From NCBI GenBank assembly GCA_017535105.1, contig JAFXUI010000001.1, positions 174,612 to 238,611 of the forward strand: a stretch of 64,000 nucleotides of DNA. Reading direction: 5' to 3'. Below are positions 6,557 to 55,163 of this stretch, piece by piece. Position 1 is the first letter of the stretch. Each line of letters begins with the position of its first letter. Both the position numbers and the translations under genes were made by a program. Source of the DNA: Alphaproteobacteria bacterium. GTDB lineage: Bacteria; Pseudomonadota; Alphaproteobacteria; Rs-D84. The notes under the pieces were generated by a model. The model did not search any database and was not told where the DNA came from. It saw nothing but the letters and a program-made list of their open reading frames with translations.

Positions 6557-7465
6557 ATGGATATTACAATGTATGATGTGATTATTTTAGGTTCTGGACC
6601 GGCGGGTTTGACGGCGGCACTGTATGCGGGACGCGCAAATAAAAACGCGATTGTTTTGGGTGGCGCAAAACTGGGCGGTCAAATGTCTGAAATTGCGAAG
6701 TTGGAAAATTATCCGGGTTGGACTGGTGACGGTATGGGTCTTGCCGAGTTTATGAAAAAGCAGGCTGAATCGTTCGGGGCAAAAATTGTTCCTGTGTCGG
6801 CCAAGTCGGTCGATGGTGACGCGGAAAGTGGTTTTAATGTTTTGGGTGATGACGGCAAAAATTATGTCGGCAAAACGGTGATTTTTGCAACGGGTGCATC
6901 ACCACGCAAATTGGAAATTGAGGGCGCCAAGGAATTGGTCGGTCGTGGTGTTTCATATTGCGCAACATGTGACGGCTTTTTCTATTATGGCAAAGATGTA
7001 ATGGTAATGGGTGGCGGAAACGCGGCATTAAATGATGCGCTGTATTTGGCGGACGTTGCGAAATCGGTAAAAATCGTTTATCGCAAGGGTTCGTTTTTCC
7101 GCGCCGAAGAAGTTTTGCGCAATCGCATCGCGGAACGTAAAAATATCGAATGCTTGTTTAATACGGACCTTAAAAAAGTGGCGGCGGTGCCGGGTTCAGA
7201 CAAATTAGTCGTAACAACACTTGATGGCAAAGAAATAGAAACAGACGGTTTGTTTGTCGCCATTGGGCATGAGGCAAATACGGACTATCTGGACGAAGGG
7301 GTCAAACGTGATGGAATGGGTCGTTTGATGCCATCGGAATTGCCGGCTGGAACATTTGTTGCGGGCGATGTGCACAGCAATATAAAAATGCAAATTGCAA
7401 CGGCGGTGGGTACGGGGTGTACCGCCGCGATGGAGGCAATAGCATATCTGAATTCCAAAGAATAA
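6557..7465 (+). CDS. trxB: thioredoxin-disulfide reductase
   Basis: 302 aa. FAD motif ILGSGPAGLTAALYAGR, redox CATCDG, NADPH motif VMGGGNAALNDALYL. Confidence 0.9.
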   Translation: MDITMYDVIILGSGPAGLTAALYAGRANKNAIVLGGAKLGGQMSEIAKLENYPGWTGDGMGLAEFMKKQAESFGAKIVPVSAKSVDGDAESGFNVLGDDGKNYVGKTVIFATGASPRKLEIEGAKELVGRGVSYCATCDGFFYYGKDVMVMGGGNAALNDALYLADVAKSVKIVYRKGSFFRAEEVLRNRIAERKNIECLFNTDLKKVAAVPGSDKLVVTTLDGKEIETDGLFVAIGHEANTDYLDEGVKRDGMGRLMPSELPAGTFVAGDVHSNIKMQIATAVGTGCTAAMEAIAYLNSKE

Positions 7466-7494
7466 AAACGCGCCATTGGCGCGTTTATTTTTTT
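7464..7494. terminator. bidirectional intrinsic terminator (trxB / J-domain gene)
   Basis: ACGCGCC-ATT-GGCGCGT hairpin followed by a T-rich run. It overlaps the 3' end of the convergent gene. Confidence 0.65.
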
Positions 7495-7976
7495 CCAAAA
7501 TATTTTTTAAGTGTGTCGTATGCGGACGATATCTTGGCAAATTCGGTGGCGGAACCCGAACGGTCTGGGTGGTGCTGTTTCGCAAGCGCGCGATAACGTA
7601 CACCAACCTCACGCCATGATGCAGTGATTGGTAAACCAAATGTTTTAAGCGCATTCATCACCGGACCGGGCAGGGTTGTTTTCTTTGGCATTTTATCAAA
7701 CGTGTCGCGACCCGATATAAAATCATTCAGGAATTTTACATAATCCGCTTCGTCTGCATTTGCCTTTGCTTTATCTTTTAATGGTGAACCAAATGTTATG
7801 CGTTCCCAATCTTCTTCGACTTCGTCCGCCGACATTCCCGCATAGTAATTCCAATTTTTATTATATTCGGCGGCGTGTTCTGGACAGAAATACCAATATT
7901 CACGCAGATCGCGCGTCTTTGGACAACGGCATGTTCCCGCCTTTTGACAATTTGCGTGTTCACATTTTTTTATCAT
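7485..7976 (-). CDS. J-domain-containing protein (C-terminal DnaJ domain, Cys-rich N-terminus)
   Basis: 163 aa. C-terminal J domain with HPD (YRALAKQHHPDRSGS). N-terminus reads CEHANCQKAGTCRCP...YWYFCPEHAAEYNKNWNYY. Start overlaps the xerD stop by 4 nt. Confidence 0.75.
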   Translation of the reverse strand: MIKKCEHANCQKAGTCRCPKTRDLREYWYFCPEHAAEYNKNWNYYAGMSADEVEEDWERITFGSPLKDKAKANADEADYVKFLNDFISGRDTFDKMPKKTTLPGPVMNALKTFGLPITASWREVGVRYRALAKQHHPDRSGSATEFAKISSAYDTLKKYFGKK

Positions 7977-25543: not shown

Positions 25544-27586
25544 ATGCAAGTTTATGTAAATATAAATGATAAACGTTGGAAGAAATACGATATTGATTTT
25601 AATCGTATCGCGGCGGCGGCGGGTCCGAAACGCAAGGGGGTTGAGGTTTCAATTACTCTGACCGATGATAAGGAAATACATAAACTGAACAAGAAATATC
25701 GTGGTATGGATAAACCAACAAATGTGTTGTCATTTGAGTTGGGTGATGATGTTTTATTGGGGGATATTTATATTTCACTTGATACGGTTAAACGCGAAGC
25801 GGCGGCGGAAAACATAAGTGTTGCCGAACACACCGCGCACATGGTTGTACATGGTATGTTACATTTGCAGGGTTATGATCATATAACCGATGACGAAGCG
25901 TCTGTTATGGAATCCAAAGAAATCGCTATAATGAAAAAGTTGGGTTATAAAAATCCCTATGCCGATGAATGTAATTGCGGCTGTGGCGGGAAATGCAATT
26001 GTGTTGATTGTAAGTGTAAAAATTGTTCGTGTTGTAATTGTCCAGGCGATAAAACAATATCGTTTTTTAAAAAGATAAAAATTCGTGAAAATGGATTTTG
26101 GCAATACGCGCTATATGCACTGTTTGGCGGTGTTACAGCATTCGGGTTTGCACCGTTCTATTGTTGGTGGGCGACGGTATTGGGTGTTGCGGGCGCATAT
26201 TGGTTGACAATGCGCAGAACAAAATTTGGTAATTGGCGTCATGAGTTTTTAAGAGCCGCACCATTTGGTATAATGTATGCAATCGCGATGCTGTGGTGGA
26301 CATTAAATTCAATCTATGTCGTGCCAGAGTTAGCAAAACAATTTGCAATATGGACGGTGCCGGCATTATTGGGTATCGGCCTGTTTGGTTCTTTATTCTT
26401 TACATTACCGTTTCTTGCTATTGCGCGTGGCGGTTTGTCTTGTGCGGGACGGGTGTTTATGTTTTCGGGCGTGTGGACATTTGTGTTATGGTTGCGCGAA
26501 TGGTTTTGTTCCGGATTTCCATGGAACCCAATTGCAAATATTGCCTTGCCATTTCCAGTAATTGCGAATTCGATGTCGGTATGGGGTGCGTTGGGTTTAA
26601 CGTTTATTATAATCGGCATAATCGCAAGTGTAGTTGAGATGTTAAAAAATCGCAAATGTGCGCAATGTTGGTGGATATTATTGTTCTTTGTCATAATGGC
26701 TGTATGTGGCGGATTTGCCGGCATACATAATATTCGTGTTGCGTCAAACGATGTATCAAAGTCCGCGGTCATTCGGATTGTTCAACCGGCACAGTCACAG
26801 GGGCAAAAGATGGTATATTCGCGCGAAGATGCATTAAAGCGTGCTGAAGAAAATTTGATAAGATTGTTTCAGTTGGCATCGGACGGCGACAAACCTGATA
26901 TAATCGTTTTTCCAGAAACGACATATCCATATACAATTACAAACAATGACGATATGCCGTTGGCATCGGCATTAAAAACAAATGTTGTTATTGGGGCAAC
27001 GGGATTTCTGGACGGCGCGCCATATAATTCAATGATTGTTGCAGATTCAGATGGTAAGATTACAAGCATATATAACAAATCACACCTTGTTCCATTTGGT
27101 GAATACAGTTTGTTCGGTTTTATGCCATCACCGGCGCATTTAAGTCGCGGGGGCGGGGCGGAACTGATTTCAATGATGGTCGATGGTGGTGAATTTGTTT
27201 TTGCGCCGGCCATTTGCTATGAAATTATTTTTTCTGATTCTTTGGTACCAGACTCTGATTTGGCGCCACACGCCATAATCAACATTACAAACGATACTTG
27301 GTTTGGTAAAACCCCCGGGACATATCAGCATCTTGATATGGTGCGCCGGTACGCGATTGAATCGGGATTGCCGATTATTCGTGCGAACTATTCAGGGATA
27401 AGTGCGTTTGTTTTGTCGAACGGTGAAATATTGTCTGCATTACCAATTGGCCAGGTTGGCACATTGGACGGTACGGTTTGGGGTGCGCATAAAACAATTT
27501 ATCGCGGTATTGGTCGTAACCGGATAATGATTTTGATTTTGTTGCTTTCGATAGTCGGCGTAATGCTTGGCCGGAAAAGAAAATAA
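25544..27586 (+). CDS. fusion protein: rRNA maturation endoribonuclease YbeY + Cys-rich linker + apolipoprotein N-acyltransferase Lnt
   Basis: Uninterrupted 680-aa ORF. aa 1-140 are YbeY (HGMLHLQGYDH). aa 143-166 read CNCGCGGKCNCVDCKCKNCSCCNC. aa ~175-680 are Lnt (multi-TM half plus CN-hydrolase half with IVFPETTYP, YNKSHLVPFGEY, FAPAICYEIIF). Confidence 0.85.
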   Translation: MQVYVNINDKRWKKYDIDFNRIAAAAGPKRKGVEVSITLTDDKEIHKLNKKYRGMDKPTNVLSFELGDDVLLGDIYISLDTVKREAAAENISVAEHTAHMVVHGMLHLQGYDHITDDEASVMESKEIAIMKKLGYKNPYADECNCGCGGKCNCVDCKCKNCSCCNCPGDKTISFFKKIKIRENGFWQYALYALFGGVTAFGFAPFYCWWATVLGVAGAYWLTMRRTKFGNWRHEFLRAAPFGIMYAIAMLWWTLNSIYVVPELAKQFAIWTVPALLGIGLFGSLFFTLPFLAIARGGLSCAGRVFMFSGVWTFVLWLREWFCSGFPWNPIANIALPFPVIANSMSVWGALGLTFIIIGIIASVVEMLKNRKCAQCWWILLFFVIMAVCGGFAGIHNIRVASNDVSKSAVIRIVQPAQSQGQKMVYSREDALKRAEENLIRLFQLASDGDKPDIIVFPETTYPYTITNNDDMPLASALKTNVVIGATGFLDGAPYNSMIVADSDGKITSIYNKSHLVPFGEYSLFGFMPSPAHLSRGGGAELISMMVDGGEFVFAPAICYEIIFSDSLVPDSDLAPHAIINITNDTWFGKTPGTYQHLDMVRRYAIESGLPIIRANYSGISAFVLSNGEILSALPIGQVGTLDGTVWGAHKTIYRGIGRNRIMILILLLSIVGVMLGRKRK

Positions 27587-47164: not shown

Positions 47165-48817
47165 GTGAAAAAAATCAGTATATTTTTGTTGCTTGCAACC
47201 TTTGGTTTTGCGGCGTGTGATTTACAGCCGCGTATAAAAGCATTGCCCGATACAGTTGGTGATTTTATTACTGAACGTTACCCGACATTGTTGGCGGATC
47301 CAAATGCACAACCTGAGATTTATAATTCGGCGGCAACAGACTATGGTGTGTATGCGTCACCGGAAATATATGGCTCATCGGACGTTGATAACTATGTTTT
47401 ATATTCATCGGTTGATGATTATATCGTTCCCCCAGATGAAGAAGAACTCGCTGTCCAAGAAGAAGTAGTGGAAGAAGCAACAGAGGTTGCCAAGGAAGAG
47501 ACACAAGAAGAACCGCAAGAAAAAGAAGACACCGAAGAATTTGCCAGTGATGATGTTTTAACAATTCCAGAAAGGGCGACCGAACCAGTGAAAGAAACCG
47601 CGTCCCAAGAAGTCCCAGAACCCAAAGAGTCAGAAGACGATATAAACTGGAAAGACGATTCAACAAGTGATGATGAATTAAATGTGCCACGGTACAGCGA
47701 TGGTGAATTTGTGACGGTTGTGCGTGGCGATACACTGTATTTGATTGGCAAAAAATATAATTTGACGGTTGCGGAACTTGCGAAAATGAACAACCTTTCG
47801 GATCCATACGTGTTAAAGGTGGGGCAAAAATTACGTATTCGTGCGGCGGAACCTGTGGCGACAGAAAAACCAAAATCGGAACCAAAAGCAGAGCTAAAAC
47901 CAGAACCAAAACCAGAAACTAAAACTGAACCCAAGCCAGAGCCCAAGAAAGAAGTAAAGGCGGAAAAGAAACCGGTGGCCAAGGTGGATGCGTCACGCAA
48001 AACGACAACGCGTGTTGATGTGGAACATATTACGGTGACACCGGGCGATACACTGTATTCATTGTCGCGTAAGTATTCGATACCGGTGAACGACTTGGCG
48101 GTAATGAACGATTTAACTGCGCCGTTCGCGCTGTATGCCGGACAAAAGTTAAAGGTGCCAGATTTATCAACTGCGCCGGTGCGTACCGCAAAGCCGTCTG
48201 AAACCAAACCGGTAAAAACGGAAAGCGCGCCAGCGACTAAACAAACAGACAAACCAAAAACCGAACAAAAGCAATCGGCAAAACCAGGCCAGAAACAGAC
48301 TGAAAAACAACCAGTAAAACAGGCAACAAAGCAGGCACAAAAGCCCGCCCAGAAAGCCGATAAAAAACAACCAACACAGAACCCAAAGGCAAAACCGACA
48401 ACGGCCGCGGCAAAAAAGCCGGCGATAATGGCGCGTTCGTCATCGCGATTCTCGTGGCCGGTGCGGGGTAAGATTTTGTCTAACTATGGCGCCAAAACCA
48501 ATGGGCTGTTTAATGATGGTATCAACATTGGTGCGGTACGTGGGTCATCGGTCTTGGCAGCGGAAAATGGTGTTGTGGCGTATGCCGGGAACGAGGTTAA
48601 GGGTATGGGGAACCTTGTTATTATCCAGCATTCTGACGGTTGGATGACGGTTTATGCGCACATGGATTCAATGCTTGTCCGGCGCGGGTCGCGTGTTGGG
48701 GTGGGGCAAAAAATTGGTACCGTTGGCCAAACAGGCAAGGTTGATAAACCACAATTACATTTTGAGGTACGTAAGGGAACCAAGGCATATAACCCGATTC
48801 AGTACTTGAAAAAGTAG
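47165..48817 (+). CDS. nlpD: NlpD-like lipoprotein: 2 LysM domains + degenerate LytM (M23) domain
   Basis: 550 aa, GTG start. Lipobox FAA-C, acidic and K/P-rich linkers, two LysM domains (VRGDTLYLIGKKYNLTVAELAKMN; TPGDTLYSLSRKYSIPVNDLAVMN). The M23 domain has ligand substitutions (NDGINI for HxGxD; PQLHFE for HxH), as in amidase activators. Confidence 0.85.
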   Translation: MKKISIFLLLATFGFAACDLQPRIKALPDTVGDFITERYPTLLADPNAQPEIYNSAATDYGVYASPEIYGSSDVDNYVLYSSVDDYIVPPDEEELAVQEEVVEEATEVAKEETQEEPQEKEDTEEFASDDVLTIPERATEPVKETASQEVPEPKESEDDINWKDDSTSDDELNVPRYSDGEFVTVVRGDTLYLIGKKYNLTVAELAKMNNLSDPYVLKVGQKLRIRAAEPVATEKPKSEPKAELKPEPKPETKTEPKPEPKKEVKAEKKPVAKVDASRKTTTRVDVEHITVTPGDTLYSLSRKYSIPVNDLAVMNDLTAPFALYAGQKLKVPDLSTAPVRTAKPSETKPVKTESAPATKQTDKPKTEQKQSAKPGQKQTEKQPVKQATKQAQKPAQKADKKQPTQNPKAKPTTAAAKKPAIMARSSSRFSWPVRGKILSNYGAKTNGLFNDGINIGAVRGSSVLAAENGVVAYAGNEVKGMGNLVIIQHSDGWMTVYAHMDSMLVRRGSRVGVGQKIGTVGQTGKVDKPQLHFEVRKGTKAYNPIQYLKK

Positions 48818-48867: not shown

Positions 48868-48943
48868 GGATGCATAGCTCAGTTGGTAGAGCAACTGACT
48901 CTTAATCAGTGGGTCCAGGGTTCGAGTCCCTGTGCGTCCACCA
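48868..48943 (+). tRNA. tRNA-Lys (anticodon CUU)
   Basis: 76 nt cloverleaf folded by hand: acceptor GGATGCA/TGCGTCC, D arm GCTC-AGTTGGTA-GAGC, anticodon arm ACTGA-CTCTTAA-TCAGT, T arm CAGGG-TTCGAGT-CCCTG, encoded CCA. Confidence 0.95.
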
Positions 48944-48950
48944 AAATAAC

Positions 48951-48979
48951 AAACCGCCAAAATGGCGGTTTTTCTTTTT
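48951..48979 (+). terminator. intrinsic terminator after tRNA-Lys
   Basis: AAACCGCC-AAAAT-GGCGGTTTTTCTTTTT. Confidence 0.75.
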
Positions 48980-49043: not shown

Positions 49044-50612
49044 ATGAAAAAATATTTTCTTCTTACATCTGTTTTAGCATTGGCTGCCTGTGGCGGCGGT
49101 AGTGGTGGCGGCGGCGGAAGTTCGAATACGCCCGCTCGTAATGTCGTGGTTCCGGCAACTTTGCATGGTGGTGCAATTGCGCCAGAAGACATCACAAGTA
49201 ACCAAGCAATTACACAGATGAATTCGGAAGTTATCGTTTCTTCGAATAGTTCTTTGCCCCTGTCTCGTTCTGCAAGTGTGACATCGGGTGGGGTAACTTT
49301 CTCTTCGTACAGATTGGACGATGTTAAATTTTATGCTGCGGATGCGGCACATACTGCGGACGGCTATTTGCAACTTGGTATAAATGATGATGGGCGCATT
49401 GACAGAATGTTTATGGTGGTTGGTGGTGTTGGTGCTGATGCCGCAGTTGCGCGTGATGGTGAGAACAGCACATTCAAGGCCCCTATATTTGAATATGTCC
49501 AAGACGAAAAGAAAGGTGAAATTGCAAATTCTGGACAAGATGAATCTGCACTGGAGACATATAGAGCTTCACAAGGTTGGTCATCCAAGGGTTATTGGAA
49601 ACTTAATAACGTCACAGATAAATATGAATATTATAAACTAGGGGATGAGGCATCATATCGTACAGTTGGTACATCAGAAACAACGTTTGGTTCATTGGAA
49701 TCCTTGGAAACAGAACATAATTTGAATGGTGGACATTGGAATCGTACAGATGAAGTTCTGCCAGTCGTTACATATGGTGGCAATATTGATGGTGAGGGTA
49801 CTGCGTTACAGTATTCTGATTTTGGACGTTTTAATCCAGTATACAAAACAAAACGCGTTTTCTTGAATGGCGGAGACGAAAGTTCTGGGTGGACACATGA
49901 CGTTTCGAAAAGTGGCGAATATAAAGAACATGACAATGATGCAATGATAGTTGAACTTGCCAAGGAAGACTATCAATTGTTTGCTGGTGGTTACGCGATT
50001 CATGGAACAACCATGGACGAAGACAGACCGTCATTAAACCCAGTTAGTGGTCAGACATACAAGGGTATGGCGGTTGGTCGGGTGTATACTTCTGTTGAAT
50101 GTAATGGGTGCTCTTTTGCAGACAAAAAAGCTGCTGCTACCGCTTATGGTATCACATTTAATCCAAGTATTACAGAAGATGACTTTAATAACCAAGAAAT
50201 TGGTCGTGATATAGCAAAAGAGTTCAGGACATACGAAGCGACAATGGAAGTCACTACCGAAGGTGGTAAGATTGCAGAAACGTTGACAATGCCTTTCTAT
50301 ACTTCGCCTGTTACAGCAACGCCACAATACTATGATGTCGAAATCAAACAGGTTGATGGTGTTATGGATCATGTGACGTTTGATGCCGCCGATGAAAATG
50401 ATATTGCATCGCAATACAGATTACATGGTGCGGATAGTTCGTGGAATTATGCGGAAGTAAGCTTTAACCCAGGATACTATGGCGTAAATACTCCGTCTGA
50501 GGCTGCTGGTACCGCGGCGATTCGTGCACGGCAAGAAAATGCGAAAGGTTACGGCGAAAAACGTGACTATGAAGTTCAGGCCGCATGGGGTATGAAACTG
50601 CAAGAACCGTAA
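49044..50612 (+). CDS. TbpB/fHbp-like surface lipoprotein (candidate Slam/T11SS cargo)
   Basis: 522 aa with AAAGGAAAGAG SD. Lipobox LAA-C followed by the poly-Gly tether CGGGSGGGGGSS. C-terminus FNPGYYGVNTPSEAAGTAAIRA...EVQAAWGMKLQ resembles the last strands of the TbpB-type beta-barrel domain. Confidence 0.6.
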   Translation: MKKYFLLTSVLALAACGGGSGGGGGSSNTPARNVVVPATLHGGAIAPEDITSNQAITQMNSEVIVSSNSSLPLSRSASVTSGGVTFSSYRLDDVKFYAADAAHTADGYLQLGINDDGRIDRMFMVVGGVGADAAVARDGENSTFKAPIFEYVQDEKKGEIANSGQDESALETYRASQGWSSKGYWKLNNVTDKYEYYKLGDEASYRTVGTSETTFGSLESLETEHNLNGGHWNRTDEVLPVVTYGGNIDGEGTALQYSDFGRFNPVYKTKRVFLNGGDESSGWTHDVSKSGEYKEHDNDAMIVELAKEDYQLFAGGYAIHGTTMDEDRPSLNPVSGQTYKGMAVGRVYTSVECNGCSFADKKAAATAYGITFNPSITEDDFNNQEIGRDIAKEFRTYEATMEVTTEGGKIAETLTMPFYTSPVTATPQYYDVEIKQVDGVMDHVTFDAADENDIASQYRLHGADSSWNYAEVSFNPGYYGVNTPSEAAGTAAIRARQENAKGYGEKRDYEVQAAWGMKLQEP

Positions 50613-50630
50613 TGGTGTTTTATATGTTGA

Positions 50631-50662
50631 AAATTCAGCCCGTTTTTACGGGCTGAATTTTT
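50631..50662 (+). terminator. hairpin/terminator between lipoprotein and Slam-like gene
   Basis: 12-bp stem AAATTCAGCCCG-TTTTTA-CGGGCTGAATTT followed by TT. Confidence 0.6.
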
Positions 50663-50687
50663 CAATATAATTTGTATTTAATTTTTT

Positions 50688-52061
50688 ATGCATTACAATA
50701 CGAACGTGTTGCGAAAGGTTTTAATTCTTTGTTGTGCGATATTTGTACCAGTGTGTGCGCTGGCCAATGATTCTGGTACACAAAAAAATGTTATGATGTC
50801 CACTACTGATGTTATGAAGTTGGCTGGTGATTTGGTTTATGCTGGGGAATATGAAAAAGCGCAAGACATCCTTGTTAAAATGCCACAGACATATAATTTG
50901 CCGATTGAAATTGAACGTTGGTATTTACTTGCACAAATTGAGCAAAAGAAAGGCAACATTGACGAAGCAATCAAGATTTATCGAAAAATTTTAGATGATC
51001 AGCCGGATCTTGCCAAGATTAGATATGAACTTGCAATATGTTATATGGAAAAAGGCCAATGGTATCGTGCAGATTATCATTTGCGCTTGGCTATGGCGGG
51101 GGCTGATATTCCACCAGAAATAAGACAACGTATGATGTATTTGCGATATATCGTGCGACAAAATAAACGTTGGAACGTATGGTTTAACTTTGGTGCCGCG
51201 CCCGATACCAATGTGAACCAAGCCACAGGTGGCAAGGAATGTATCCGTGATACAAGTGGTTTCGGTTATTTGTGGTGTCGTGATTTACCAGAACCCGAAA
51301 GTGCGGTTGGTTATAATTTAATGCTGGGTGGGAATTACGAATTTGTGTTATCCAAAAATTGGCGTTGGAAAAATGATGCGACTATATACACGAATGTGTA
51401 TGACAAGCACAGATATGATGATTTGTATTTGTCGGCATCCACTGGACCGCGATATGTCTGGGAACGTGGCGATGTCTGGTTGGCAGGGGTCGCTAATCGA
51501 AGTTGGTATGGTTGGGACAGGTATAATTGGGCATTGGGCACAAGGTTGGATATCAACTATGATTTTACGAACAAGTTATCATCGGGTTTAAGTTTTCGTG
51601 TGATGGATAATAATTATGACGAATACGGCGACTATATGGACGGTCAAACTTATTCGACATTACCACACATATCATATTCGCTTGACTCTACTACATATAC
51701 AGTATTGCGCGGTACATTGGAACATAATACGGCACAAAATGATGCGTATGCAAACAACAGATACGGGGTAAGTTTTGGTATCGGTTCCGAATTGTTATAC
51801 GGTTTCCATGTGTATTTGGAACCAAGTTTTATGTGGACACAATATCAAGGTGAACGTGTTTATGTGAAAAACAATACACCTGTGATTGGTAAAGAACGCG
51901 ATTTTTTACAGCGGTATTCGTTGTCGCTGTCCAACAACAAGTTTGATTTCTGGGGATTTGTTCCGACAATAACAGTCAGTTATACTAATAAAGATTCAAA
52001 CATTCACTCGCGTGAATATGAAAAGATTTCCGCAGAGTTTACTTTCCAGCAACGTTTCTAA
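50688..52061 (+). CDS. Slam (surface lipoprotein assembly modulator, DUF560; type XI secretion-like) outer-membrane protein
   Basis: 457 aa. Signal peptide, N-terminal TPR region (AGEYEKAQDILVKM...KKGNIDEAIKIYRKILDDQPDLAKIRYELAICYMEKGQWYRADYHLRLA), then beta-barrel region starting KRWNVWFNFGAAPDTNVNQA and ending ...AEFTFQQRF. Confidence 0.65.
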   Translation: MHYNTNVLRKVLILCCAIFVPVCALANDSGTQKNVMMSTTDVMKLAGDLVYAGEYEKAQDILVKMPQTYNLPIEIERWYLLAQIEQKKGNIDEAIKIYRKILDDQPDLAKIRYELAICYMEKGQWYRADYHLRLAMAGADIPPEIRQRMMYLRYIVRQNKRWNVWFNFGAAPDTNVNQATGGKECIRDTSGFGYLWCRDLPEPESAVGYNLMLGGNYEFVLSKNWRWKNDATIYTNVYDKHRYDDLYLSASTGPRYVWERGDVWLAGVANRSWYGWDRYNWALGTRLDINYDFTNKLSSGLSFRVMDNNYDEYGDYMDGQTYSTLPHISYSLDSTTYTVLRGTLEHNTAQNDAYANNRYGVSFGIGSELLYGFHVYLEPSFMWTQYQGERVYVKNNTPVIGKERDFLQRYSLSLSNNKFDFWGFVPTITVSYTNKDSNIHSREYEKISAEFTFQQRF

Positions 52062-52164: not shown

Positions 52165-52770
52165 ATGAAAAAATTAGCAGTATCAGCACTGGCAATTGTG
52201 TTGGCGGCCCCAGCATTCGCCGGTCAAAACCAGGACCCTGCATTTACCGTTATGGGTTTGGACCCATATATCGCATTGCGTGGCGGTTTGGGTTATAACA
52301 ACTTGAACTATTCGTTCAATGGTAAAAAAGAATCTTCCGAAGACCTCGATTTTCGTGGCCGTGTTGCGATGGGTTTGGACATCTGTGATACGGTGCGTTC
52401 TGAAATTGAATGGTCGTTGTTCAGCAAGGCAAAAGACACCAAAGATTTTGGTGATATCAAAGATGTAAAAATTGAAAGCAAGTTGCAAACGTTGATGTGG
52501 AATTCATACTGGGAATTCGGCGACTATCAAATGATTCGTCCGTTCGTTGGTATGGGTATCGGTATGGGCTTTACAGACGTGACACGTAAAGGTGATGCGA
52601 TTGCAAAACATCACGAAGAAAAAACACGTTTTGCAGCAATGGGTTCGCTGGGTATGACATTTGACTGGCAAGTATTTGCAGTTGATGTTTCCGCAAGATA
52701 TAACTATGTCGATGTTCGTTCCGGAATGCATGACTTTGGTGGTGATATCGGTGTAAGATTTATGTTCTGA
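52165..52770 (+). CDS. small outer-membrane beta-barrel protein (Omp25/Opa-like, 8-stranded type)
   Basis: 201 aa with AAGGAG SD. Signal peptide ...APAFA, GLDPYIALRGGLGY..., C-terminal DIGVRFMF. Confidence 0.7.
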   Translation: MKKLAVSALAIVLAAPAFAGQNQDPAFTVMGLDPYIALRGGLGYNNLNYSFNGKKESSEDLDFRGRVAMGLDICDTVRSEIEWSLFSKAKDTKDFGDIKDVKIESKLQTLMWNSYWEFGDYQMIRPFVGMGIGMGFTDVTRKGDAIAKHHEEKTRFAAMGSLGMTFDWQVFAVDVSARYNYVDVRSGMHDFGGDIGVRFMF

Positions 52771-52825: not shown

Positions 52826-52941
52826 TGAAAACGCGCTATGTGCATTGTTTCCTGGGGTTTATGAAATCAAACCTGGGGATATGTTTTATTTTTTAATATA
52901 AAATTATTATGCATAAACATAAAAACCAAAGGAGAGAATAT

Positions 52942-53511
52942 ATGAAAAAATTGACCGCGTTGGCATCATGTTTTGGGGCTGTTGTTATATTGGCCGGCTG
53001 TTCATCTTGTCCAACAAAACAATACACGCATCATAATGAGCAAGCATATCACGCAAAGAAACAACATCATAAAAAACAACAAAAAATGCAATCAGGGACA
53101 CCGCAATTAACAGAAACAGTTGTGTTCTATCAAACCTATGACGTGTCAGATATTGATAATGTAACGGCAAATATGTTCACACGTAGTTCACGCGGGGGCG
53201 AATCTGCAATGGGAACAATAAAGTTCGTTGAAACCAATGATGGCTTACATATGAAAACAGACCTTATAGACTTACGCCCGGGGGTAACATATACCGCGCA
53301 TGTTTATCAGTGTGGTTCGTGTAATAACGACAGTATGTGCTGTGACACATCGCCAATGTCGATTGATTTGCCAAAGTTAAAGATTGAACAGGCGGGTCGT
53401 TTGCAAAAATCATATATCATTCGTGGTTTGACAGCGGCGCAATTGAATAACGCAAAATTGGTGCTGACACGTGACGGTGGGTACAAGGCAGCGTGGGGTA
53501 AAATAAAGTAA
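52942..53511 (+). CDS. Cu,Zn-superoxide-dismutase-fold lipoprotein lacking most metal ligands
   Basis: Trimmed to [22 protein letters not shown] (lipobox LAG-C) with [48 protein letters not shown] and the C-terminal AAWGKIK parallel SodC [30 protein letters not shown] and ACGVIK. Confidence 0.55.
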   Translation: [189 protein letters not shown]

Positions 53512-53609: not shown

Positions 53610-55163
53610 ATGGAAAGGTATACCAGATTTTGTTGGTTTTTGGGTATATTGGTGTGTTTGCCATGCTTTGCCACGACAGACATTGTTGCCGTACAAAAGT
53701 CGGGCGATCGGTATATGACACTGGATACCATAATCGAGCCCGGTGGGTCTTTTGTGGACGGTACAATTTACATACAAAACTCACTGAATATCGTAAATAA
53801 TGGTCAAATTACAAGTGCCTTAAACGTATGTAATAATTGTAATGTGTATATCGAAAATACCGGCATTTATAATGCGGCCGCAACACTTGGTACAAACGCG
53901 ACCATTACCCAGGTTATAAAGAATGCGGCGGATATAACGACCCTTACAAATATCGGGGCGGGTAATTATGGAGTCTTGGTTCAAGATACAGCGACCACGT
54001 TAAATTGGAACACGATTAAAAATACAACAATCGGTGCCAATAAATTCGAATTTGATAACGCAAAACTGGAAATGGGTTTGATTGAGAGTATCAGTAATGT
54101 TCGTATAACTAATAATCTGTTTATACATACGCACGATGTTATAAATACAGATACATTATTATTTGCCAATGTTTCGGGTGATGGGGTTGTTTATGTTGAT
54201 TCTGATAATCTTGATATTATGTATGAACTTGAAACATACAAGGTTACAAACAGTATTTTTGTGCGGACAGTTCGTTCGGGTGACTATGGCCGAATATTAA
54301 ATAATGGGGCGGGGCGTTTCTTGAATCAATTGCGAATTGATTTGCCCGAAGATAAATTGTTAAACAAAATGGACAAAGCCAAAACAATGTCCGAATTGAA
54401 ACATATTATGTCGCGAAGTGTACGATTAAATCCAATAAAACTTTTGCAACCAATTAAAACACTGTATGCGCATAAAATGCTGGAAACAATGCACATAGAC
54501 GATGATACGGTTTTTGGTTTTATGCCGTTTGGTGTGTTTTCTGATGATATTATTTTAAATGGCGCGGGGCCGCGCATAAGTACAAAAATATCAGACGATT
54601 TACATTTAACAATATCGGGTTATTTTGCCGATTTGGAATATTCAGATGACATAAATGAATACACGGGTAGTTCATATGGAATCGGCCTGGATATCGTTGA
54701 TAATTTATCATCTGATAATTTTGTTCGTATATACGGCGATGTTGGTTTTTCGCATTTTAATGCGGGACCAATATTTAATGGGCGTAAAACAAAAAAGAAT
54801 CCAGACGGTTTTTCGGGGTATATGGCGGGTGAATTTGGGCACAAGTTTGATGTTGATGAATATTATGTCACGCCATTTATTATGGTGGGGTCTGAATATA
54901 CAGAAGTGTTAAATGATAATGTTTTGGACACGTATGTTGGTGCGGGCGCAAATGCAGGCTTTGATTTGGAAATTGACGGGTTGCGGTATGATTATATGGC
55001 GCGCAGTATTGTACGTTCAGACGGCGGGTTCGGCGCATCGGTAAATATCTCCGTATGGTCGGGTTTAGACGCAGCGGGGGCGGATTTTGGGGTTGGTGTG
55101 TTTTATGACAATGTGTCGGGGCCATCGTACCGCGCGTCAATAAACGGAAAGTTCGGTTTTTAA
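53610..55163 (+). CDS. autotransporter-like outer-membrane protein
   Basis: 517 aa. Signal peptide, N/T/I-rich repetitive N-terminal half (NSLNIVNNGQITSALNVCNNCNVYIENTGIYNAAATLGTNATITQV), C-terminal half with alternating beta pattern ending SYRASINGKFGF. Confidence 0.45.
   Translation: MERYTRFCWFLGILVCLPCFATTDIVAVQKSGDRYMTLDTIIEPGGSFVDGTIYIQNSLNIVNNGQITSALNVCNNCNVYIENTGIYNAAATLGTNATITQVIKNAADITTLTNIGAGNYGVLVQDTATTLNWNTIKNTTIGANKFEFDNAKLEMGLIESISNVRITNNLFIHTHDVINTDTLLFANVSGDGVVYVDSDNLDIMYELETYKVTNSIFVRTVRSGDYGRILNNGAGRFLNQLRIDLPEDKLLNKMDKAKTMSELKHIMSRSVRLNPIKLLQPIKTLYAHKMLETMHIDDDTVFGFMPFGVFSDDIILNGAGPRISTKISDDLHLTISGYFADLEYSDDINEYTGSSYGIGLDIVDNLSSDNFVRIYGDVGFSHFNAGPIFNGRKTKKNPDGFSGYMAGEFGHKFDVDEYYVTPFIMVGSEYTEVLNDNVLDTYVGAGANAGFDLEIDGLRYDYMARSIVRSDGGFGASVNISVWSGLDAAGADFGVGVFYDNVSGPSYRASINGKFGF

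Follow-up and report, generated by a model that had tools for sequence, protein, structure and literature searches.

The lipoprotein and Slam genes of the locus

In a 64,000-nucleotide stretch of an alphaproteobacterial genome (assembly GCA_017535105.1, contig JAFXUI010000001.1, positions 174,612 to 238,611 of the forward strand; the whole stretch is hereafter the window), two consecutive open reading frames (ORFs) on the + strand, at 49044-50612 (gene 1, 522 residues) and 50688-52061 (gene 2, 457 residues), encode a lipoprotein, referred to here as the cargo, and a protein of the Slam/DUF560 family, and it is likely that together they constitute a type XI secretion system (T11SS) module. The limits 49044-52061, set in an initial annotation made from the sequence, agree exactly with the boundaries of both ORFs, within which the following features are placed.

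49044..49091, + strand: signal peptide and lipobox of the cargo (LAAC, predicted lipidation at Cys16), residues 1-16, from the translation and the invariance of Cys16
49092..49178, + strand: Gly/Ser-rich flexible tether of the cargo, residues 17-45, predicted to be disordered, from model confidence and G17-G19 conservation
49179..49949, + strand: beta-rich N-terminal region of the cargo, residues 46-302, putative effector and handle or pedestal, from AlphaFold2
49950..50609, + strand: putative Slam-targeting barrel of the cargo, residues 303-522, a FAGGYAI strand followed by eight predicted long strands, from AlphaFold2
50623..50669, + strand: strong hairpin and U-run between cargo and Slam, followed by a TATAAT-like hexamer, from folding against shuffled sequences
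50688..50765, + strand: signal peptide of Slam (MHYNTNVLRKVLILCCAIFVPVCALA), residues 1-26, read off the translation only
50808..51125, + strand: putative periplasmic TPR domain of Slam, residues ~41-146, from Pfam TPR models and TPR matches to PDB chains
51171..52058, + strand: DUF560/SlipAM membrane barrel of Slam, residues 162-457, from Pfam PF04575

Gene 2 is matched by PF04575 over the entire model (positions 1-288 of 288; E 2.3e-38; 132.8 bits, cutoff 22), and this full-length match to a profile hidden Markov model (HMM) is the sole support for a complete Slam barrel, which would be expected to have 14 strands. The region that precedes it is recognized by generic TPR models at residues ~76-137, with TPR_19 at 33.6 bits (cutoff 25) and TPR_14 at 29 bits (cutoff 23.5), and the matches of gene 2 to PDB sequences are confined to this TPR part. 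The Slam-specific TPR_Slam model reaches 34.8 bits on the window protein, just under its cutoff of 35.2, and 35.2-37.6 bits on the orthologs in related loci. The signal peptide, the TPR region, the motif KRWNVWFNFGAAPDTNVNQA (KRWNVWFNFG) that opens the barrel at residue 160, two residues ahead of the start of the SlipAM match, and the final Phe of the C-terminus (...FTFQQRF) all lie where the initial annotation had placed them. By these domain matches gene 2 is a genuine Slam/DUF560 outer-membrane protein with a predicted periplasmic TPR domain, as the initial annotation had proposed. Because it is only 21-27% identical to annotated Slams, both plasmid-borne and from Neisseria (Novosphingobium, Neisseria, Acinetobacter, Sulfitobacter), the window Slam is considered a divergent member of the family.

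The cargo begins with MKKYFLLTSVLALAACGGGSGGGGGSS, in which the lipobox L-A-A-C, with its Cys16, is followed by a run of Gly and Ser, and it ends in ...FNPGYYGVNTPSEAAGTAAIRARQENAKGYGEKRDYEVQAAWGMKLQEP, where the stretch quoted in the initial annotation (FNPGYYGVNTPSEAAGTAAIRA...EVQAAWGMKLQ) is found. Among 93 aligned homologs, Cys16 does not vary and G17-G19 show at least 90% conservation, in agreement with the lipobox and poly-Gly tether originally proposed. The same degree of conservation, at least 90%, is seen in the blocks GGHWNR, LQY.DFG.FNP, DYQLFAGGYAI, G.A.GRVY, YG...EAAG and Q.A.GM, and there is little or no variation in FAGGYA, Y.G.A.GR, YG..T..EAAG and Q.A.GM. Since lipobox, tether and motifs are conserved across 93 homologs, they cannot be put down to chance. 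Within the cargo, core strand blocks (0.62-0.68 identity) contrast with variable loops (0.28-0.35): the block GGHWNR...LQYSDFGHFNP, at residues 229-270, has a regional identity of 0.68, residues 271-302 one of 0.28, and residues 162-228 are mostly gaps in 57% of the homologs. H231, W232, H388 and Y348 are among the His, Tyr and Trp residues that are conserved.

No Pfam model matches gene 1, and nothing meaningful was obtained for it in NCBIfam or among PDB sequences. A homolog search with gene 1 returned 181 proteins, none of them with a Pfam domain, the few named ones being annotated as "hypothetical protein" from metagenome-assembled genomes (MAGs) of Alphaproteobacteria and Ca. Avelusimicrobium, and when the C-terminal profile was run with HMMER against all 1.84 billion representative proteins, only 80 were recovered at E <= 1e-3. 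One family member shows a weak NEAT match (E 0.0027) and two show weak DOMON matches (E 0.022), isolated and non-significant in each case. Neither the cargo itself nor three profiles found anything among PDB sequences beyond matches to the signal peptide, or to neurexin LNS domains and Fab chains at a W[YH]DV hairpin, and these were discarded as chance. On sequence evidence, gene 1 encodes the precursor of a lipoprotein whose tether is rich in Gly and whose family is undescribed.

Linkage of the pair and its occurrence in Elusimicrobiota

A scan of GTDB species representatives identified 25 loci in rumen and gut MAGs, 24 of which carry enough downstream sequence to be informative, and in all 24 Slam lies directly 3' of the cargo on the same strand. 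Relative to the window proteins, identity is 58-81% for Slam versus 31-57% for the cargo, mean pairwise identity is 0.69 versus 0.50, and neighbour-joining trees of the two proteins, which carry no support values, group the loci concordantly. The pairing is thus strongly supported, and the comparison of gene order and trees shows the two genes to be inherited and, by the evidence presented below, transferred as a unit. The proposal of a Slam-cargo pair in an alphaproteobacterium is likewise sustained, both by this adjacency and by the grouping of the window organism with uncultured gut and rumen Alphaproteobacteria. In locus L021, a second lipoprotein (6854-7789, + strand; 311 residues, lipobox LSAC) is encoded between cargo and Slam; it has a differing N-terminal part, aligns with part of the barrel profile (hhalign E 1.5e-5) and has a relative elsewhere (P0187), in an arrangement like that of multi-cargo Slam loci.

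The spacer between the two genes of the window folds into a hairpin of -27.9 kcal/mol (z -7.35), which none of 200 shuffled sequences equals. A hairpin with a T-run is found at the same position in the window and in seven other loci, and the fact that the stem sequences differ among these eight suggests a conserved terminator or attenuator, which probably holds Slam expression below that of the cargo. In the other loci, cargo and Slam abut or overlap, lying 0-17 nucleotides apart.

The pair is also present in four species representatives labelled Elusimicrobia, together with a protein named by NCBI as Ca. Avelusimicrobium caledoniensis, a cross-phylum occurrence that had gone unrecognized in the initial annotation. 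The Elusimicrobia label is a MAG taxonomy that rests on binning, on contigs of up to 112 kb. The Elusimicrobia Slams match PF04575 with E-values of 1e-35 to 1e-38 and reach or exceed the cutoff of TPR_Slam, and in the neighbour-joining trees of both Slam and cargo the Elusimicrobia copies cluster with a subset of the alphaproteobacterial loci (L011, L012 and L024-L026). Their Slams are 81-85% identical to alphaproteobacterial copies over the compared part in three of the four loci, and 69-78% in the remaining one (L015), and their cargos are 60-70% identical. Cargo and Slam are the only genes that the Elusimicrobia and alphaproteobacterial loci have in common, one flanking gene being common to the Elusimicrobia contigs only. 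In the Avelusimicrobium contigs and in L014, the pair is embedded in a block that reads zeta-toxin-like gene, hypothetical, cargo, Slam, HTH_17, two hypotheticals, HTH_17 and large serine recombinase, and that is surrounded by housekeeping genes.

L037 7934-17349: putative integrative island with the cassette
L038 5124-14533: putative integrative island with the cassette
L014 2923-11346: putative integrative island with the cassette

A serine recombinase, adjoining a tRNA-Asn gene, is also found in the alphaproteobacterial locus L012 (Ca. Enterousia). The sharing of cargo and Slam only, the recombinase-bearing island and the clustering in the trees point to a joint horizontal transfer of the two genes of the cassette. 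Two studies (PMC5449769, PMC8406197) describe Slam and T11SS throughout the Proteobacteria but without occurrences in Bacteroides, Borrelia or Campylobacter, and a literature search returned no mention of Slam together with Elusimicrobia.

Apart from these MAGs, plasmids of Sagittula (L034, 3219-3908) and Sulfitobacter (L036, 3117-3821) encode a hypothetical protein of ~230 residues without a Pfam match directly 5' of Slam, and these look like further Slam-adjacent proteins overlooked by current cargo models. Two PLSDB records of ~2.17 Mb labelled as Neisseria gonorrhoeae plasmids (NZ_CP119140.1 and NZ_CP119142.1; L030) are evidently whole chromosomes, almost unannotated in that collection.

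Predicted structure and relatives of the cargo

The AlphaFold2 model of the full-length cargo, built on the alignment of 93 sequences, has a predicted local distance difference test (pLDDT) score of 87.8 and a predicted template modelling (TM) score of 0.85. Its first 28 residues are disordered, the rest of its N-terminal half is rich in beta structure, and long strands make up the C-terminal part. Values of pLDDT fall below 50 at residues 1-28, are 66 at residues 31-40 and lie mostly above 90 in the N-terminal region (46-302). When modelled alone (residues 300-522; pLDDT 87.1), the C-terminal domain displays exactly eight long strands past the TYKG motif (338-353, 386-406, 409-417, 431-437, 440-447, 473-481, 483-498 and 505-519), with helices in the first loop. 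The predicted strands are consistent with a cargo-type eight-strand barrel, and no specific TbpB-type relation is shown by them. The eight strands expected of such a barrel in the initial annotation are present in the models, but no fold match exceeds a TM-score of 0.3. In Foldseek searches of the PDB, the top three chains for the full-length model are TbpB (E 1e-3, TM-score ~0.15), with fHbp and LbpB also listed, and the best matches for the domain alone are eight-strand barrels, with PsbO first, followed by OmpA, the TbpB C-lobe (E 0.028) and LbpB, all with a TM-score below 0.3. Neither search supports a specific relationship, and a particular kinship to TbpB or PsbO on the basis of rank was rejected; the N-terminal region returned no significant fold match in Foldseek.

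For comparison with established systems, annotated plasmid-borne pairs were retrieved, comprising "transferrin-binding protein-like" lipoproteins of Novosphingobium and Sulfitobacter, a "Slam-dependent surface lipoprotein" of Erwinia and a "factor H binding protein domain" protein of Acinetobacter. Each of the four cargos is encoded directly 5' of its Slam and matches TbpB_B_D, FHBP_C or both in Pfam. The Erwinia cargo matches TbpB_B_D, FHBP_C, HpuA and HphA_C over overlapping stretches, suggesting that the four Pfam models describe related barrels. A profile of 28 Slam-dependent lipoproteins was then aligned with the new family by hhalign, using reversed sequences as controls. Full-length alignments gave E-values of 1e-7 to 5e-6 and a probability of 94%, but the score dropped from 60.7 to ~21 upon removal of the first 40 residues (lipobox and poly-Gly), and this signal was rejected because it is carried by the shared N-terminal region. 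Barrel-only alignments always fall on equivalent strands, with Y.G.A.G in the first and YG..E..G...FG.k in the last. With a query identical to PDB 7ket_C, fHbp aligned just at the "lP..G.tY.G.A.G" junction (E 0.13-0.19) and was set aside. By sequence, the cargo does not belong to a known barrel family, and a remote homology of its barrel to the classical cargo barrels, with marginal statistics, is no more than plausible.

The closest approach to a known cargo model is made through a distant protein, P0175, which is recovered by the barrel profile of the window family (E 4.4e-5 in 1.84e9 proteins; hhalign E 7.8e-15, reversed control 0.1) and whose barrel in turn matches Pfam HphA_C (E 1.4e-5, model positions 7-111 of 113). 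Another distant member covers the full TbpB_B_D model at an E-value of only 0.039-0.087, and a homolog search with P0175 returned five proteins, none of them annotated in Pfam, and no better bridge. In the tail of the library search there are many lipoproteins that share the same N-terminus (MKK..LTS.LALAACGGGSGGG) and an ordered series of C-terminal motifs (F.G.A.G, AtL.F.nGtE.L.MnF, WYDV, YYGdn.pSEA.G and f.aAFG.K), and the barrels of this wider lipoprotein superfamily align with the window family at an hhalign E-value of 5e-38.

Genomic setting and interpretation of the pair

The window is an ordinary stretch of chromosome, encoding SecD, FtsK, MutL, tRNA synthetases and GatB, and the pair lies in the order recJ, DHH-family gene, lolA, tatB, tatC, dipM-like gene, tRNA-Lys, cargo, slam, small outer-membrane protein gene, lipoprotein gene and a further gene that may encode an outer-membrane protein. 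The order dipM - tRNA-Lys - cargo - slam - outer-membrane protein is met again in other alphaproteobacterial MAGs, Ca. Enterousia among them, and is probably ancestral there. A tRNA gene marks the upstream edge of the locus and is followed by a hairpin.

48868..48943, + strand: tRNA-Lys(CTT), from ARAGORN
48951..48971, + strand: terminator-like hairpin 3' of the tRNA gene, from a consensus scan (9-bp stem with five GC pairs, then a T-run)

A tRNA-Lys gene also precedes the cargo in the alphaproteobacterial loci L003, L008, L009, L010, L013, L017 and L027, and the terminator-like hairpin after the tRNA gene implies that the cargo has its own promoter within the 72 nucleotides 5' of its start codon. 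Lipoprotein-pathway functions are represented in the window by an Lnt domain and by LolA. The former belongs to a single 680-residue ORF (25544-27586, + strand) in which a YbeY endoribonuclease domain (30-133) is followed by LNT_N (195-358) and CN_hydrolase (445-641), and which represents a ybeY-lnt fusion or, alternatively, two in-frame genes joined by read-through. Neither the locus nor the ten large ORFs of the window that were scanned yielded a TonB-dependent receptor, and further proteins of the barrel superfamily, or poly-Gly lipoproteins besides the cargo, were sought in the window without result.

Several neighbours of the pair deserve mention in their own right. Upstream, the DipM/NlpD-like protein (47165-48817, + strand) combines two LysM domains and an M23 peptidase with long low-complexity linkers rich in Pro, Lys, Glu and Thr. 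Directly 3' of Slam, a small eight-strand outer-membrane protein (52165-52770, + strand; OMP_b-brl, E 1.8e-8), with weak similarity to the Rickettsia Adr adhesin and Opacity family porins, is kept in most alphaproteobacterial loci; the TatD-like and ThiF-like genes that occupy the ~1.5 kb gap between Slam and this gene in several loci were dismissed as housekeeping genes rather than parts of the system. It is followed by a Cys/His-rich lipoprotein of 200 residues (52909-53511, + strand; lipobox LAGC) that weakly resembles Cu/Zn superoxide dismutase (NF007628, E 4e-4, residues 83-140) and is kept near the locus in several relatives, at times on the other side of the cargo. Finally, a 517-residue protein (53610-55163, + strand) with a signal-peptide-like N-terminus, a C-terminal GKFGF and no Pfam or NCBIfam match is kept 3' of the slam and outer-membrane protein genes in related loci at 25-44% identity, and could be an outer-membrane or autotransporter-like protein that has escaped annotation.

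By analogy with Slam1 and TbpB of Neisseria and Moraxella (10.1101/2021.08.22.457263; PMC5449769), the two genes are likely to form a T11SS module in which Slam flips the adjacent lipoprotein to the cell surface. In such a module, the cargo would be exported by Sec, lipidated at Cys16 and delivered to the outer membrane by the Lol pathway, where the Slam barrel would recognize its unfolded C-terminal barrel region. The cargo would then be translocated, folded at the surface and held there by its lipid and poly-Gly linker, with the beta-rich N-terminal region as the presumable exposed functional part. The Slam gene lies directly 3' of the lipoprotein gene, as described for known pairs (Hooda 2017; PMC5449769), and, like Slam1 and Slam2 of Neisseria meningitidis and the T11SS proteins NilB and TepS, its product has a signal peptide, a TPR region, a full-length DUF560 match and a C-terminal Phe. 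It differs from known Slams, which have been described in Proteobacteria, in its low identity and barely sub-cutoff TPR_Slam score, and in belonging to a clade of uncultured gut and rumen Alphaproteobacteria and Elusimicrobiota. With classical cargos (TbpB_B_D PF01298, FHBP_C PF08794, HpuA PF16960, HphA_C PF22829; e.g., the Erwinia lipoprotein, fHbp and PmSLP), the window cargo shares the lipobox and poly-Gly tether, a beta-rich N-terminal part, eight predicted C-terminal strands, the position directly 5' of Slam, and the Y.G.A.G first-strand and ..YG...E..G.. and ..FG.k closing motifs at equivalent positions. Its barrel region is longer than theirs (~185 versus ~120 residues), its strands are long, its first loop contains helices, and its N-terminal region has no detectable fold relative.

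Several results weigh against the assignment of the pair to the T11SS. TbpB_B_D, FHBP_C, HpuA and HphA_C match neither the window cargo nor any of the 93 family members or 36 isolated C-terminal domains, even though the Pfam library used does detect these models in classical cargos, and the TbpB barrel and handle domains expected in the initial annotation are thus not recovered. Its further claim that the C-terminal motifs correspond to the closing strands of the TbpB-type barrel holds for the strands that align, but the barrel-only E-values (0.007-0.11, against 0.14-0.30 for reversed controls) are marginal. No Foldseek match of either model exceeds a TM-score of 0.3. The bridge to HphA_C consists of a single protein, P0175, at 23.4 bits, under the curated cutoff of 31, and its gene does not adjoin any Slam. 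Lastly, the low identity of the window Slam to annotated Slams could mean that its substrate rules differ.

On another view, the lipoprotein is not a Slam substrate, being instead a periplasm-facing outer-membrane lipoprotein that is an accessory or partner, or a mere neighbour, of a Slam-like protein that exports something else. Membership in the classical cargo barrel families was tested without success, no Slam gene adjoins that of the distant paralog P0175, and a T11SS study indicates that barrel-type cargos rarely adjoin T11SS proteins of marine cluster 3 (10.1101/2024.09.26.615229). We nevertheless regard this view as quite improbable. Adjacency is strict in the 24 informative loci, both genes moved jointly between phyla when their flanks did not, gene order and strand are those of proven pairs, and the lipoprotein evolves faster than Slam, as expected of an exposed protein. 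Unlinked cargos are also normal in Slam systems, fHbp in Neisseria being an example, and P0175, with no adjacent Slam, would be compatible with one. The predicted architecture also fits the cargo definition given in the T11SS study cited above (10.1101/2024.09.26.615229).

If the lipoprotein is a Slam substrate, it might still leave the cell in soluble form and act as a hemophore, much as HphA or hemophilin do, capturing haem or metal for an uptake receptor encoded elsewhere. HphA is a Slam-dependent hemophore with the same layout of an N-terminal functional domain and a C-terminal eight-strand barrel, the latter predicted here (10.1101/2023.03.29.534853), HphA_C is the only known cargo model to which the family can be linked, the conserved His, Tyr and Trp residues and the weak NEAT and DOMON matches point in the same direction, and the T11SS is stated in one study to export soluble as well as lipidated cargo (10.1101/2024.09.26.615229). 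The link through P0175 is, however, indirect and sub-threshold, the NEAT and DOMON matches are isolated, the surroundings yielded no HphR-like receptor gene, and the locus and the scanned ORFs no TonB-dependent receptor, and the invariant lipobox Cys and conserved Gly tether argue for a lipid anchor, so that release in soluble form appears unlikely. That the cargo might be a genuine TbpB ortholog, pirating iron by binding transferrin or lactoferrin of the host, is highly improbable. TbpB is of comparable length, begins with the same kind of lipobox and poly-Gly N-terminus and tops the full-length fold search, although non-significantly, but the window cargo has no TbpB_B_D, TbpB_A or TbpB_C match, shows a single barrel-like domain in its models where TbpB has a bilobed duplication of handle and barrel, is encoded at a locus where no TbpA-like receptor was found, and belongs to gut and rumen commensal MAGs. 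The description of gene 1 as TbpB-like in the initial annotation is accordingly retained for its architecture (tether, handle strands and predicted eight-strand C-terminal barrel) and abandoned for family membership and for the hint of transferrin binding. Given that no TonB-dependent receptor was found at the locus and that the cargo diverges faster than Slam, a surface role in binding a host, particle or partner, or in protection, like that of fHbp, NilC or PmSLP, is weakly favoured over metal piracy in the style of TbpB and TbpA.

A broader proposal, which we advance tentatively and as somewhat short of probable, is that the pair represents the first T11SS/Slam seen outside the Proteobacteria: a cassette native to uncultured gut Alphaproteobacteria and carried by a serine-recombinase island into Elusimicrobiota, with a cargo whose barrel family and effector fold would both be new and be missed by pipelines based on similarity to TbpB_B_D or Lipoprotein C. 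For the window organism itself, the analysis provides a sound functional annotation and no surprise. The cargo family is invisible to current cargo models, and its spread across phyla is unexpected. Prediction of Slam/T11SS cargo now relies on similarity to a handful of barrel models, and a family that has the predicted architecture and strict linkage to Slam, yet is missed by all of them, indicates that the true cargo repertoire is probably wider than catalogued. As a confident and compact structural model without a known relative, the cargo is a reasonable target for structure and ligand studies. The location of the pair on a recombinase-bearing island in Elusimicrobiota suggests, furthermore, that modules for the display of surface lipoproteins cross phylum boundaries in the gut, a point of relevance to the way in which uncultured commensals gain surface functions.

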